From: a virus | Taxonomy: Duplodnaviria; Heunggongvirae; Uroviricota; Caudoviricetes | IMG/VR virus record: IMGVR_UViG_3300029610_000357 | Location: 52,285 to 116,284 of that record | Strand: one strand, 5' to 3' | DNA length: 64,000 bases | In this document: in pieces, positions 2,259-31,553 of the stretch | Numbering within the stretch: position 1 is the stretch's first letter | Layout: each line of letters opens with the position of its first letter | Position numbers and translations under genes: made by a program | Notes under the pieces: model-generated | Database searches by the model: none | Told to the model about the DNA's origin: nothing | Seen by the model: only the letters and a program-made list of their open reading frames with translations

Positions 2259-2333
2259 ATAGAGCTACCGATCAGAATCGAACTGATAACCTATCGCTTA
2301 CAAGGCGATTGCTCTACCAATTGAGCTACGACA
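2259..2333 (-). tRNA. tRNA-Thr (anticodon UGU)
   Basis: Hand-folded cloverleaf: the acceptor is GCTGTCG/CGGTAGC (two G-U pairs). The D-arm reads GCTC-AATTGGTA-GAGC, the anticodon stem is ATCGC/GCGAT with loop CTTGTAA, and the T-arm is ATCAG-TTCGATT-CTGAT. Confidence 0.7.
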
Positions 2334-2519
2334 GCACAAAAAGAGTACATTGTAACTACCAACAATGTACTCAAACTTAGAAAAGAGGTATAAATTATGA
2401 TTCCTACAAGAAATCTTAATAGCTTTGTAAATCTTTCTGAGGTATGAAACAACAGTAGAAAAGCGCAATAATCAAAACTTCACAAGAAAGGAGATAATAT
2501 GATTCCTCAGAAAGATTAA

Positions 2520-2591
2520 CAGGGATAACTGGATTTGAACCAGTGAATACAGCAGTCAAAGTGCTGTGCCTTACCGCTTGGCGATATCCCT
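2520..2591 (-). tRNA. tRNA-Gln (anticodon UUG)
   Basis: The acceptor AGGGATA/TATCCCT is perfect. The anticodon stem is CAGCA/TGCTG with loop CTTTGAC, and the T-arm is ACTGG-TTCAAAT-CCAGT. Confidence 0.8.
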
Positions 2592-3204
2592 ATATGTATT
2601 TTAATTTTAAAGCAGGTCTTCACCTTACAGTCATTTGTGGAATAGTTTGTTCTGCAACATAGTAGATAAGTCTGAGCTTCGAGGAGCGACCTCTAACTTC
2701 TTACCTAAGTCTAAAAGACCAGTTCTATGACATGATCAATACATGCAATGTCAACCCACCATTCAGAATTAAGTTTTATTGTTATATACTCTATTAGCAT
2801 ATATATTCATTTTGAATTTGAACTTGCCCTTAACTGACTTGAGCGACATACCAGCGACTTTTCTTATACACTGTCTTTTGAACAGCTTCACATCAAACTA
2901 CATTATTTGGCTTTTCCACCTTTTACGTACCTGCCAGAGTACGCATTGAAGTGGATTATTCTCCACAGGAGCGTCTATTGTTGTAGCGAAAAGTTCTGTG
3001 CGTTAACCAGACCAAAATGCTGCACAATATCCATTTGCTTGAGAGTTTCTCTCTTGTCCATATCAGATCACTCCGACATAAAAAGAGACACAAAGAACGT
3101 ATCCGTACAATGTATCTCTCCAATTCGACATATGTGCCTAGAATATCTCTCGGACTCATGGCATTGAGTTTTATAACCGAGTTGCTTATGTTTTAAAATA
3201 CAAA

Positions 3205-3276
3205 CACCCTAAGCTGGATTTGAACCAGCACGAACGGTTTTGGAGACCGTCATTCTACCAACTAAATTATTAGGGC
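3205..3276 (-). tRNA. tRNA-Trp (anticodon CCA)
   Basis: The acceptor is GCCCTAA/TTAGGGT with a G1-U72 pair. The anticodon stem is ACGGT/ACCGT with loop CTCCAAA, and the T-arm is GCTGG-TTCAAAT-CCAGC. Confidence 0.7.
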
Positions 3277-3283
3277 GATATTA

Positions 3284-3357
3284 CTGACATGACAGGACTC
3301 GAACCTGCAACACCAACGTCCGTAGCGTTGTGCTCTGTCCAGTTGAGCTACATGTCA
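3284..3357 (-). tRNA. tRNA-Arg (anticodon ACG)
   Basis: The acceptor is TGACATG/CATGTCA. The D-arm reads GCTC-AACTGGACA-GAGC, the anticodon stem is CAACG/CGTTG with loop CTACGGA, and the T-arm is GCAGG-TTCGAGT-CCTGT. Confidence 0.75.
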
Positions 3358-3571
3358 ATAACGAATATGTATTTACCTCTCATACGTACACACTGGCGAG
3401 ACAATACATATTTCTAAAAAGCAACAGTGTGTAAGTATTGCTTTTCTAGGGCGAACTGAAGTGATGAACTCCATCAGAATATCAGAAGAGGTATACATTC
3501 CAATATCCACCAACCATCAGGGTGTTCGCATATTTTTTGGTTAATCTATCGTATAGTTACTAACCTAATCA

Positions 3572-28722: not shown

Positions 28723-28807
28723 TTAAAGATTGATATTGAGAGAGACACTTCGTATGAGGTGTCTCTTTTAGTATATAAATTTTTTAGAAAGGAGATGAAA
28801 AAGGAAG

Positions 28808-29596
28808 ATGGCAACAGAGTTTGACAAACGAATGAAAGCTTATGAATGTGTCTCAAGACAGTACTTAACAAGAAGAGTACCAGTTGCGATCAGAGTAGAT
28901 GGAAAGGCATTTCATACATTCACTAGAGGGTTTCAGAAACCGTTCGATGAAGTGCTTAGCAATGCAATGCAGGCCACAATGATGAAAATGTGTAGACAGA
29001 TTCAAGGTTGTGTGTTTGCTTACACACAGAGTGATGAAATTACATTTATTCTTATCGATTATCAGAAGCTAAATTCTGATGGCTGGTTTAACTACCGTAC
29101 TGATAAGATGTGTAGCATTGCAGCGAGTATGGCTACTATGGAGTTCAATAAGGTATTTAGTGCTTTTGTTTATGGATTTAAGGTAAACAAGGGAGAAGAC
29201 ATATCAAGTGAAGATATGGAAGTGCTTAAAGCCTATGAGAAATCTAAAGAACGTGGAGCTATGTTTGATGCTAGAGCATTTTCAATTCCAAAAGAAGAAG
29301 TTACGAATCTAATTTATTGGAGACAGCAAGACGCTATGAGGAATGCAGTTCAGATGGTTGGACAAGCATTTTATTCCCACAAAGAGCTTCAGGGTGTTAA
29401 TTGTGAGATGCTTAAAGAAATGTTACTGGCTGATAAGGGAATTGATTGGGATAAGATTCCTGTGAAATATCAGAGAGGTAGCTGTTGTGTCAAGGTTGAT
29501 GGTGAATGGACTATTGACAATAACATTTCTATCTTCAGAGGTAGTGACAGAGAGCAAATTGATAAGCTTGTGTTTGTTGAGAGTGAAGAGAACTGA
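28808..29596 (+). CDS. Thg1-like protein (tRNA-His guanylyltransferase family, 3'-5' nucleotidyltransferase)
   Basis: The N-terminus YLTRRVPVAIRVDGKAFHTFTRGFQKPFDEVLSNAMQATMMKM...AYTQSDEITFIL follows the Thg1 pattern (VRxDGxxFHxFS...KPND...GQSDE). Confidence 0.65.
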   Translation: MATEFDKRMKAYECVSRQYLTRRVPVAIRVDGKAFHTFTRGFQKPFDEVLSNAMQATMMKMCRQIQGCVFAYTQSDEITFILIDYQKLNSDGWFNYRTDKMCSIAASMATMEFNKVFSAFVYGFKVNKGEDISSEDMEVLKAYEKSKERGAMFDARAFSIPKEEVTNLIYWRQQDAMRNAVQMVGQAFYSHKELQGVNCEMLKEMLLADKGIDWDKIPVKYQRGSCCVKVDGEWTIDNNISIFRGSDREQIDKLVFVESEEN

Positions 29597-29665
29597 GCGT
29601 CTGATTAGACGTGCAGATATAGAAATGAACTGTCGCAGAGTTGCGACGGTTGGAAAGGAGAAGGG

Positions 29666-29827
29666 ATGGAAATAAAAGGTGACACTATAAAAACCGTAAA
29701 AGAAGTAAATCCAAGTAAGTTTGAAGAAGAAGTTTCTAATTTGATTAATAAAGGATACAAATTAGAAGCTTCTTCTTGTAATAGTACTTATTGGAAAGCT
29801 ATTTTAGTTTTAGAGAGAAAGGAGTAG
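29666..29827 (+). CDS. small hypothetical protein (53 aa)
   Basis: GGAAAGGAGAAGGG precedes the ATG. It is too short for the ORF track. Confidence 0.35.
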   Translation: MEIKGDTIKTVKEVNPSKFEEEVSNLINKGYKLEASSCNSTYWKAILVLERKE

Positions 29828-29829
29828 AG

Positions 29830-30573
29830 ATGAATGAAGTAGAAACAAAAGAGATCCCGTTTTATGGAGATACGCTTTTAGGTGTAAAAGATGAGGATGG
29901 AGAAGTTTGGTTGGCAATCAGAAGCACATGTATACAGCTAGGGTTTAATGAAAGACGAGCAAGGGCACAAAGAGAGAAAATTCAAGCTGACAAAGTCTTA
30001 TCCAAAGGTGGCCGAAATTTTGGCCTCCTTACAGCAGGGGGTAAACAAGAAACATTTTGCTTACATGAAACATATGTGCCACTTTGGTTAGCTAAAATTA
30101 CATTAACCAAAAAGATGGAAGAGGATATTCCCAATGTTGTTGAAAAGCTAGAAAGATATCAACTTGAAGCAAGAGATGTTTTACATAGGGAAATGTATGG
30201 CACAGAAGAACAGAAAGAAAAGCTTCACAATAACCTAGGTTTGCAAGGAGAGATTATACAACTAAAAGATGCTGTAGATTCTGTAACTGAACAGCTTAAA
30301 GATCAAACAGAGAGATTAGATTTAGTAATGAACAATATGACTATTGATACTAAAAAGCAGAGTCGTATTCAAAAGGCCGCAAAGGAAAGAGTAAGTGAAT
30401 TACTTGGTGGAGCTCATTCAGGACTGTATAAAGCTAAAGGTGCTTTGTATTTTGCAAATCTGTGGCATCAATTGAGATTAGAATTTGAATGTGGAACTTA
30501 TAAAGATCTTAGTCCAAACGATTTTGATGATGCTATGAGCTTTATTCAGAGTTGGACATATGTAGAAAGGTAG
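29830..30573 (+). CDS. antirepressor-like protein (N-terminal Ant/KilA-like domain + C-terminal ORF6C-like domain)
   Basis: The C-terminus KERVSELLGGAHSGLYKAKGALYFANLWHQLRLEFECG is paralogous to the C-terminus of the 36072 gene. Confidence 0.5.
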   Translation: MNEVETKEIPFYGDTLLGVKDEDGEVWLAIRSTCIQLGFNERRARAQREKIQADKVLSKGGRNFGLLTAGGKQETFCLHETYVPLWLAKITLTKKMEEDIPNVVEKLERYQLEARDVLHREMYGTEEQKEKLHNNLGLQGEIIQLKDAVDSVTEQLKDQTERLDLVMNNMTIDTKKQSRIQKAAKERVSELLGGAHSGLYKAKGALYFANLWHQLRLEFECGTYKDLSPNDFDDAMSFIQSWTYVER

Positions 30574-30584
30574 AGGGAAGAAAG

Positions 30585-31553
30585 ATGAGAACAATTACAA
30601 ATACACATACAGGAAAAATTATTTCTGATACAGATTTAACATTGGAATATCTTTATGTTGGAGATTATGGAAAAGAAAATAACATTAAAGCAGATTTTCT
30701 TGGATATAACAAACGTATTGAGAAAGTAGAACATAAACCTGTTAATGTAAAAGAAAAATTAGTTGTTACTGTTTCTTCCCAGAAAGGTTGTCCAATGCAT
30801 TGTAATTTCTGTGATTGTCCTAAGCTTGGATTTAAAGGAAATGCATCTTTAGCTGAGCTCATGGCTGAAATCACATCTGGAATCGCTTTATCTGGAGTAA
30901 AAGATGGAGAACGACTAAATGCGCATTATGCCAGAATGGGTGAACCTACATTTAATCCAAATGTAATTGTTTCTGCAAGACAGGTTGCTCTAATGTTGGC
31001 TGATCCTGATGGAGATATTCATTTTGATACATATCACCCTGTTGTTTCTACAATGATGCCAAAAGCAAATCAGAACTTGAAAGCGTTTTTATTCAAATGG
31101 ATAGCAACAGGTTTCCAATACGGTGGAGAAGATGGTTTCGGTCTTCAGTTTTCTATCAATACATTAGATGAAGAACAGCGAAATGAAATGTTTAGAGAAT
31201 GTTCTTTGTCGTTAGAAGAAATTGGAGCTATTATTGACGATCTTCCAATGCCAAAGAAACGCAAATATACATTAAATTTTGCAGTTACATCTGAAAGCAA
31301 CTTGGATGTTGATTTAATGAACAAGTATTTTGACAAAGAAAAGTGCATTGTTAAGATTACTCCAATTCATGAAACAGTTGAAGCTGTCGATGAAGGTTAT
31401 GAGATTGTTACAGATTTTGATGTTTATGAAAAATTTGAACAGCCTTTAGTAGAAGACGGTTGGGATGTAATTGTATTTGTTCCATCAAAAGAAGAAGATG
31501 CAGACAGAATTACATGTGGAAATTCATTGATTGCATTGAACAAAGATGAATAG
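30585..31553 (+). CDS. RlmN/Cfr-family radical SAM RNA methyltransferase
   Basis: LVVTVSSQKGCPMHCNFCDCPKLGFKGNASLAELMAEI aligns with the RlmN CxxxCxxC region, followed by MGEPTFNP. A C-terminal Cys sits in DADRITCGNSL (RlmN Cys355 equivalent). Confidence 0.65.
   Translation: MRTITNTHTGKIISDTDLTLEYLYVGDYGKENNIKADFLGYNKRIEKVEHKPVNVKEKLVVTVSSQKGCPMHCNFCDCPKLGFKGNASLAELMAEITSGIALSGVKDGERLNAHYARMGEPTFNPNVIVSARQVALMLADPDGDIHFDTYHPVVSTMMPKANQNLKAFLFKWIATGFQYGGEDGFGLQFSINTLDEEQRNEMFRECSLSLEEIGAIIDDLPMPKKRKYTLNFAVTSESNLDVDLMNKYFDKEKCIVKITPIHETVEAVDEGYEIVTDFDVYEKFEQPLVEDGWDVIVFVPSKEEDADRITCGNSLIALNKDE

Follow-up and report, generated by a model that had tools for sequence, protein, structure and literature searches.

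Thg1-like proteins (TLPs) of the bacterial type, which count among the family of 3'-5' RNA polymerases, have a demonstrated activity in the template-dependent repair of transfer RNAs (tRNAs) truncated at the 5' end. In the enzyme of Bacillus thuringiensis (BtTLP) the functional residues are E12, R28, D30, H35, K43, S74, D75, and E76; the catalytic carboxylates are D30, D75, and E76 in this protein and D29, D76, and E77 in hTHG1 (PMC3701042). ROOL, described in 2017, is an ornate RNA of about 580 nucleotides that, like GOLLD, tends to be located near tRNAs and in prophages (Weinberg et al. 2017, PMC5737381). Many different phages and prophages encode it, frequently close to tRNA islands, and it has been resolved by cryo-electron microscopy (cryo-EM) as an RNA-only nanocage (Kretsch et al. 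2025, PMC12286853). This report deals with a stretch of 64,000 nucleotides from a phage of the class Caudoviricetes (positions 52,285 to 116,284 of the IMG/VR record IMGVR_UViG_3300029610_000357; this whole stretch is hereafter called the window), which carries a seven-tRNA island with a ROOL RNA, a TLP gene, and a gene for a radical S-adenosylmethionine (SAM) enzyme, here abbreviated rSAM. The original prediction had read the last of these as an RlmN/Cfr-like methyltransferase and had joined the parts in a single strategy of tRNA maintenance or modification. The observation was mostly right, while the integrated interpretation is weakly supported. The tRNA/ROOL array, the TLP, and the rSAM are probably three independent accessory modules of a large gut phage and not one integrated system.

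The window has a G+C content of 35%. Among GenBank phages nothing closely related to it was found, nor was there a close relative at the DNA level among cultured phages. The rSAM protein and the same local gene order recur on human-gut metagenome contigs of about 167–222 kb and on many viral contigs of IMG/VR, and for this reason the window is assigned to a large and very common human-gut phage. The phage encodes an integrase, and the window represents about one third of its genome (about 170–220 kb).

For the rSAM gene (30585–31553, plus strand) the ATG at 30585 is the most likely start, as on related contigs. According to profile, fold, and model evidence, its product of 322 amino acids is a radical SAM enzyme that adopts a fold of the RlmN/Cfr type. 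It belongs to the PHROGs family 24834 (phrog_24834), of unknown function. The cluster cysteines C69, C73, and C76 (CxxxCxxC) and the core fold of the RlmN type are both present. A search of the PDB with the single sequence detects RlmN at E 5e-7, over residues 51–136 only, and a profile of diverse members of the family detects RlmN (E 3e-22) and Cfr (E 1e-19) over the full core. In the AlphaFold2 model of the protein (pLDDT 89.7) the ten best Foldseek matches are all RlmN, and RlmN and Cfr are the solved folds nearest to the predicted structure.

Membership of the RlmN or Cfr families is a different matter. The NCBIfam models of these families give 15–37 bits, against cut-offs of 290–633: the RlmN model TIGR00048 gives 36.6 bits (cut-off 290) and the Cfr models at most 24 (cut-offs 468–550), over residues 57–145 only. 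Measured against RlmN and Cfr (PDB 3rfa, 5hr6, 6fz6, and 9p0p), identity is 15–18% and scores lie 8–40 times under the cut-offs. The relatives of the phage protein, with 26–80 bits, are likewise below them. The position of C118, the resolving cysteine of Escherichia coli RlmN, is occupied by T62 in the phage protein and by I, T, N, M, V, or L, never by cysteine, among 33 members of the family. The methyl-carrying C355, for its part, has its equivalent in C311, within a TCGN motif that aligns with CGQL, and this residue is conserved in 29 of the 33. An extra cysteine, C78, stands directly after the cluster motif and is invariant in the clade formed by the phage and the QueT-fused proteins. The N-terminal RNA-binding domain of RlmN is absent, as the alignments begin at RlmN residue ~90–103, and the N-terminus of the phage protein is predicted by the model to form a beta-rich domain of about 55 residues. 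The protein is also strongly acidic (pI 4.8, net charge -19). On sequence grounds, the rSAM is assigned to a family distinct from RlmN/Cfr, with which it appears to share only the fold and the C355-type cysteine. The label of the original prediction is thus right as to the closest fold and the C355-type cysteine, and wrong as to the family cut-offs, C118, and the N-terminal domain. The enzyme would keep its [4Fe-4S]/SAM site and a C-terminal cysteine of the methyl-carrying type after the loss of C118 and of the RNA-binding domain, and it probably acts by class-A-type radical chemistry through Cys311. The practical consequence is that the RlmN label given by annotation pipelines can be corrected to a separate and highly conserved family, widespread in gut phages, with an altered set of cysteines and with transporter fusions.

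The genomic neighbourhood of the rSAM was compared by clustering the neighbouring genes of 84 phage loci, in which the rSAM shows 56–100% identity. These loci fall into 41 neighbourhood types. No conserved partner of the rSAM was found among the 84, the only shared families being common Ant and SSB genes. In most of them there is no tRNA within 5 kb, and Thg1 adjoins the rSAM only in eight near-identical loci, all of the lineage of the window itself. Within the window, an Ant-type anti-repressor (29791–30573, plus strand; P22_AR_N and ORF6C domains, by Pfam and PHROGs), which is not part of a tRNA function, lies between the two genes, and 25 kb separate them from the tRNA island, which is encoded on the opposite strand. 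The proposal that one strategy ties Thg1 to the rSAM is not supported by this comparison, given that the rSAM occurs in 41 types of phage neighbourhood and Thg1 beside it in a single near-identical lineage. The most suitable reading of the tRNA island, Thg1, and the rSAM is that each is an accessory element independent of the other two. A search with PADLOC matched none of Thg1, the rSAM, and the neighbouring SPFH gene to a defence system.

More can be learned from the relatives of the rSAM. A word-indexed search retrieves about 7,000 of them at E<=0.001, of which the best 120 are all at least 81% identical, and an all-against-library search groups the family into 586 clusters at 50% identity. 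Among the relatives at 33–39% identity there are two kinds of fusion: in one, the rSAM lies between a QueT-type S-component of an energy-coupling factor (ECF) transporter and MtnN, a methylthioadenosine/S-adenosylhomocysteine (MTA/SAH) nucleosidase, as in MCQ2753177.1 from a metagenome-assembled genome of Bacilli; in the other, QueT is fused to the rSAM alone. In the phage the link to a QueT/QrtT transporter is absent. The fusion of the nearest cellular relatives to a membrane S-component of the QueT type and to MtnN argues for a small molecule rather than RNA as the substrate, and the balance leans towards an rSAM that modifies an imported nucleobase-like small molecule more likely than it methylates tRNA or rRNA. 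A more precise version can be formulated, in which the rSAM, along with its thousands of near-identical counterparts in phages of the human gut, would belong to a new class-A-like branch, non-orthologous to the queuine lyase QueL, acting on a nucleobase-type small molecule imported by QueT-type ECF transporters (for example 7-deazaguanine or a queuosine precursor). This version is speculative, and we regard it as unlikely in its full detail. If true, phages would carry a new type of auxiliary gene that rewires the queuosine or 7-deazapurine metabolism of gut bacteria, and the rSAM could supply the "missing" enzyme of those bacteria in which QueK and QueT occur without QueL.

It is important to note that several observations weigh against independent modules and against a small-molecule substrate. 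The rSAM is found in or beside tRNA arrays in the loci L106 (19 tRNAs), L158 (15), and L189 (10) and in the Stenotrophomonas phage BUCTxx99 (12), and its neighbours in prophages of Lachnospiraceae include an RNA ligase and a polynucleotide-kinase-like gene; both contexts are compatible with an RNA substrate. In the window, Thg1 and the rSAM are one gene apart, so that co-expression is possible. With respect to the fusions, the QueT domain is just above the Pfam threshold in two of the four examined (37–40 bits, threshold 33.7) and below it in the other two, and no preQ1 riboswitch was found upstream of the QueT–rSAM–MtnN fusion gene. In addition, a distant clade (25–30% identity) is tied to isochorismatase-like and TrxR-like genes, which means that the rSAM family may be functionally heterogeneous. 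In this clade (loci L001–L080, mostly from Chloroflexota and other uncultured phyla) the rSAM, an isochorismatase-like hydrolase, and a TrxR-like flavoprotein are encoded together in a conserved cluster of three genes in 56–65 of the 80 loci, and some members are fused to the isochorismatase domain; these partners are uninformative for the phage rSAM.

A rival reading, in line with the original prediction, is that the TLP and the rSAM act jointly on the phage tRNAs, the former by repairing 5' ends and the latter by adding m2A37 or a related C-methyl mark, either to resist tRNA-cleaving defences or to retune decoding. The tRNA-array and ligase/kinase contexts speak for such a joint action, as do the nearest folds, which are RlmN and Cfr by a clear margin, and the retained equivalent of the methyl-carrying cysteine; the clade-invariant C78 could stand in for C118, and the phage tRNA-Gln and tRNA-Glu carry A37. 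This has to be weighed against the failure of every RlmN/Cfr cut-off, the lack of both a C118 equivalent and the RlmN N-terminal domain, and the very acidic character of the protein. The nearest cellular relatives are, moreover, fused at the membrane to an ECF S-component, Thg1 is adjacent only in one near-clonal lineage out of the 41 types, and a tRNA within 5 kb is missing from most loci. The substrate argument of the original prediction, that the known m2A37 substrate types Arg, Gln, and Glu are all present in the phage set, fails for one of the three: the phage tRNA-Arg(ACG) has G37 and therefore cannot receive m2A37. Taken together, a joint action on tRNA has perhaps one chance in several of being correct.

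The fusions to QueT also bring to mind QueL itself. The rSAM could be a phage QueL that converts salvaged queuine into preQ1, after which the tRNA-guanine transglycosylase (TGT) of the host would introduce queuosine (Q) into tRNAs with GUN anticodons. The relatives fused to QueT-type S-components at 37–39% identity fit this idea, since the queL gene of C. difficile shares an operon with qrtT and queK (PMC11477304); in the phage open reading frames (ORFs), NAU codons are dominant (72–78% of the Tyr, His, Asn, and Asp codons), and the phage encodes a tRNA-Tyr(GUA). Nevertheless, when the PDB was searched with sequences and with profiles, the QueL structure 6p78 did not appear at E<=1. This result, together with the lack of a preQ1 riboswitch ahead of the gene for the fusion, led to the rejection of the rSAM as a QueL ortholog, and a phage queuine lyase is accordingly considered very improbable. 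With orthology rejected, the rSAM could have a place in this pathway only as an enzyme that is not orthologous to QueL and that acts on a Q precursor.

The second module is the TLP, encoded at 28808–29596 on the plus strand (262 amino acids) and recognized by Pfam, PHROGs, and PDB matches. Its score with the Pfam model PF04446 is 110.4 bits (gathering score 29.2) and with phrog_4717 it is 264 bits. HMMER aligns it over its whole length with BtTLP (PDB 4kgk) at E 7.8e-50, while the other Thg1 and TLP structures are matched at only 1e-9 to 2e-6, those of yeast/Candida and human Thg1 being at 6e-7 to 2e-6. Because the E-value is far better for BtTLP, the protein is assigned to the repair-type TLP subtype and not to the eukaryotic Thg1 that adds G-1. 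In the alignment with 4kgk, the functional residues of BtTLP correspond to E13, R29, D31, H36, K44, S75, D76, and E77. All three catalytic carboxylates are kept (D31, D76, and E77), the two-metal active site is intact, and the activation and nucleotidyl-transfer residues are also conserved. The Thg1-like assignment was therefore borne out by both the profile search and the inspection of the active site. As to the role in repairing tRNA 5' ends that had been attached to it, the protein is a bona fide bacterial-type TLP, and for this reason a tRNA-directed role is reasonable beside the tRNA set of the phage; it would rebuild 5'-truncated tRNAs by templated 3'-5' addition, as proposed by analogy with BtTLP. 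A homologue is annotated in 162 GenBank phages, among them phages of Bacillus, Prevotella, Caulobacter, Mycobacterium, and Fusobacterium, so the TLP family is not new in phages. The TLP literature that was found makes no mention of phages. Phage TLPs are thus common, and the presence here of a TLP together with a tRNA set of the same phage provides a usable model.

The third module is the tRNA array. Over the whole 64-kb window ARAGORN detects seven tRNAs and no more, all of them encoded by the minus strand and located at 2262–3868: tRNA-Thr(UGU) at 2262–2335, tRNA-Gln(UUG) at 2519–2592, tRNA-Trp(CCA) at 3204–3277, tRNA-Arg(ACG) at 3283–3358, tRNA-Tyr(GUA) at 3571–3656, tRNA-Glu(UUC) at 3695–3771, and tRNA-Ser(GCU) at 3776–3868. 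The seven-tRNA cluster with these identities had been read correctly from the outset. The Rfam tRNA model RF00005 is above threshold for six of them, with 70 bits for Thr, 65 for Gln, 65 for Trp, 60 for Arg, 52 for Glu, and 40 for Ser (52–70 bits for the first five). The tRNA-Tyr is called by ARAGORN only and has a weak D-stem; Rfam gives for it a sub-threshold match of the tRNA-Sec type (24 bits). Long variable arms are present in both tRNA-Tyr and tRNA-Ser. Position 37 is A in tRNA-Gln and tRNA-Glu and G in tRNA-Arg, the anticodon loop of which reads CUACGGA in the sequence. The CCA end is encoded in none of the seven. No mismatched 5' acceptor stem that would need editing of the Thg1 type was found among them, all seven stems being fully paired.

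Codon usage explains part of this set. In the phage ORFs, ACA makes up 60% of the Thr codons and GAA 70% of the Glu codons, which fits tRNA-Thr(UGU) and tRNA-Glu(UUC). By contrast, tRNA-Arg(ACG) serves minor codons (24% of the Arg codons), and hence codon supply alone cannot account for the tRNA set. The phage tRNAs may supplement decoding for an AT-rich phage, replace host tRNAs depleted by defences, or both. In a simpler view, the tRNAs would be a plain codon-usage supplement, with ROOL, the TLP, and the rSAM as morons that have no relation to one another; instead of repairing damage, the TLP would add G-1 to a tRNA-His whose gene lies in another part of the genome. The match between the favoured A-ending codons and the phage tRNAs agrees with this view, phage TLPs are routinely annotated as tRNA-His guanylyltransferases, and no more than about one third of the genome lies in the window. 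However, ARAGORN finds no tRNA-His within the window, the TLP is far nearer to the repair-type BtTLP than to the eukaryotic G-1-adding Thg1, and the minor codons read by tRNA-Arg(ACG) remain outside the explanation. We judge this simpler view to be rather improbable, somewhat more so than the joint action on tRNA discussed above.

The array also contains a full-length ROOL RNA (Rfam RF03087; 2594–3205, minus strand). It is identified by cmscan with 306.1 bits (gathering score 99.1) and E 8e-71, the match covering positions 1–574 of the 574 of the model without truncation. This RNA fills the 611-nucleotide gap between tRNA-Gln and tRNA-Trp on the same strand as both: its 5' side abuts tRNA-Trp (3204/3205–3277) and its 3' side is 2 nucleotides from tRNA-Gln (2519/2520–2592). 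Since the context is documented (PMC5737381, PMC12286853), ROOL beside phage tRNAs is an already known arrangement. By analogy, the phage RNA belongs to a class that forms an RNA-only nanocage. The nearly flush boundaries suggest that tRNA-processing enzymes set the ends of ROOL. The seven co-oriented tRNA genes and ROOL would be transcribed as one unit, from which RNase P cleavage at the 5' end of tRNA-Gln and the 3'-end processing of tRNA-Trp would free a ROOL with defined ends. The location of ROOL between two tRNAs makes the definition of its ends by tRNA processing directly testable, and ROOL is now placed in a very abundant human-gut phage.

The original prediction had pointed to unexplained spacers of 200–600 nucleotides in the array. 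The one of 611 nucleotides is explained by ROOL, and the description holds for two others of 183 and 212 nucleotides (2336–2518 and 3359–3570, minus strand). The former has no Rfam match at E<=1 and a fold z-score of -2.8; a long-range stem of 13 bp and a terminator-like hairpin lie within it. The latter has no Rfam match either, and its fold z-score of -1.5 is indistinguishable from shuffled sequences. Neither contains further tRNAs or known RNAs. The terminator-like hairpin with its T-run (2343–2372, minus strand) lies inside the array immediately upstream of tRNA-Thr; it may indicate that tRNA-Thr is expressed separately, or else it may be a processing element.

Downstream of the rSAM, a gene at 31575–32450 (plus strand) codes for an SPFH/Band-7 membrane protein similar to prohibitins and flotillins (Pfam Band_7, 99 bits). 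Unrelated phages (L105, L083, L111, and the Stenotrophomonas phage BUCTxx99) likewise have an SPFH/Band_7 gene at a distance of a few kb from the rSAM, in several of them downstream of it; the annotation of BUCTxx99 wrongly names the rSAM itself "prohibitin family protein". In the 230-kb gut phage of locus L106 (7974–14552), a gene of the rSAM family with 82% identity lies in the middle of the 19-tRNA array, together with a gene for a YqeY-domain protein. Two genes downstream of the rSAM of the window there is a tRNA-shaped RNA, an eighth element that the original prediction had overlooked (32482–32631, plus strand; Rfam tRNA, 42.5 bits with a 93-nucleotide insertion). Its acceptor, D, and T arms are perfect, and the anticodon arm is replaced by an A/U-rich insert of about 93 nucleotides in the window and of 66–93 overall. 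The same element occurs at L105 13723–13860, L118 8722–8860, and L157 8662–8799, always just after the SPFH gene and in two lineages. The version of the second lineage, at the syntenic position, has 6 of its 16 stem pairs changed on both sides, with 100% pairing. An anti-Shine-Dalgarno-like UACCUCC block (UUUUNUACCUCCNUAU) is kept in the inserts of both versions, and the peptide of a small antisense ORF in the insert is not conserved between them. The intron mode of ARAGORN reads the element as a tRNA-Gly(CCC) with a 59-nucleotide intron, which was judged a forced fit and rejected. This RNA could be a decoy, a stabiliser of the mRNA 3' end, or a processing signal.

Other genes of the window, all on the plus strand, complete the picture. 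A gene for a reverse transcriptase (RT) of the UG27 (DRT) class (24055–25347; PADLOC RT_UG27, 558 bits) comes after a tandem series of some ten paralogous genes, 90–105 amino acids in size and with repeated start regions (21083–24039). No template/variable repeat of the kind found in diversity-generating retroelements (DGRs) was detected among the direct repeats of at least 40 nucleotides in 18000–28200. A second, orphan radical SAM-like ORF (303 amino acids, 33835–34746) reaches 23 bits with Pfam, which is under the threshold, and is not related to the first. It has no relatives in PHROGs and no credible sequence relatives in the PDB, and among phage genomes that are otherwise near-identical only some contain it. 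Further along are genes for a NUDIX hydrolase (35066–35656), a CTP_transf_like nucleotidyltransferase (39376–39942; taken from Pfam annotation precomputed for identical contigs), and a DHH/DHHA1 phosphoesterase (42182–43096), the proximity of which could reflect an auxiliary metabolism related to nucleotides or NAD.

The main interest of the locus lies in an abundant, uncharacterised rSAM family and in the clean junctions between ROOL and the tRNAs, and the comparison with the known systems can be made part by part. Like the phage tRNA islands of T5-like and jumbo phages, the array is a co-oriented tRNA cluster with small ORFs and non-coding RNAs. The islands of the Stenotrophomonas phage BUCTxx99 and of metagenomic jumbo phages hold the same rSAM family and SPFH genes inside, whereas here the rSAM, SPFH, and Thg1 genes are 25 kb away on the opposite strand. 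The phage ROOL shares with its class the phage and tRNA-island context and shows no distinguishing feature at the level tested. With respect to BtTLP (4kgk/4kgm), the phage TLP has an insertion of about 30 residues, at about residues 118–150, and of the two only the latter is encoded by a phage. QueL (C. difficile CD1684; C. spiroforme 6p78) is a radical SAM enzyme genetically tied to QueT/QrtT transporters, and relatives of the phage rSAM are physically fused to a QueT-type domain. Finally, the rSAM differs from RlmN and Cfr in its acidity, in its invariant Cys78, and in having relatives fused to QueT-type transporter components, MtnN, or isochorismatase.

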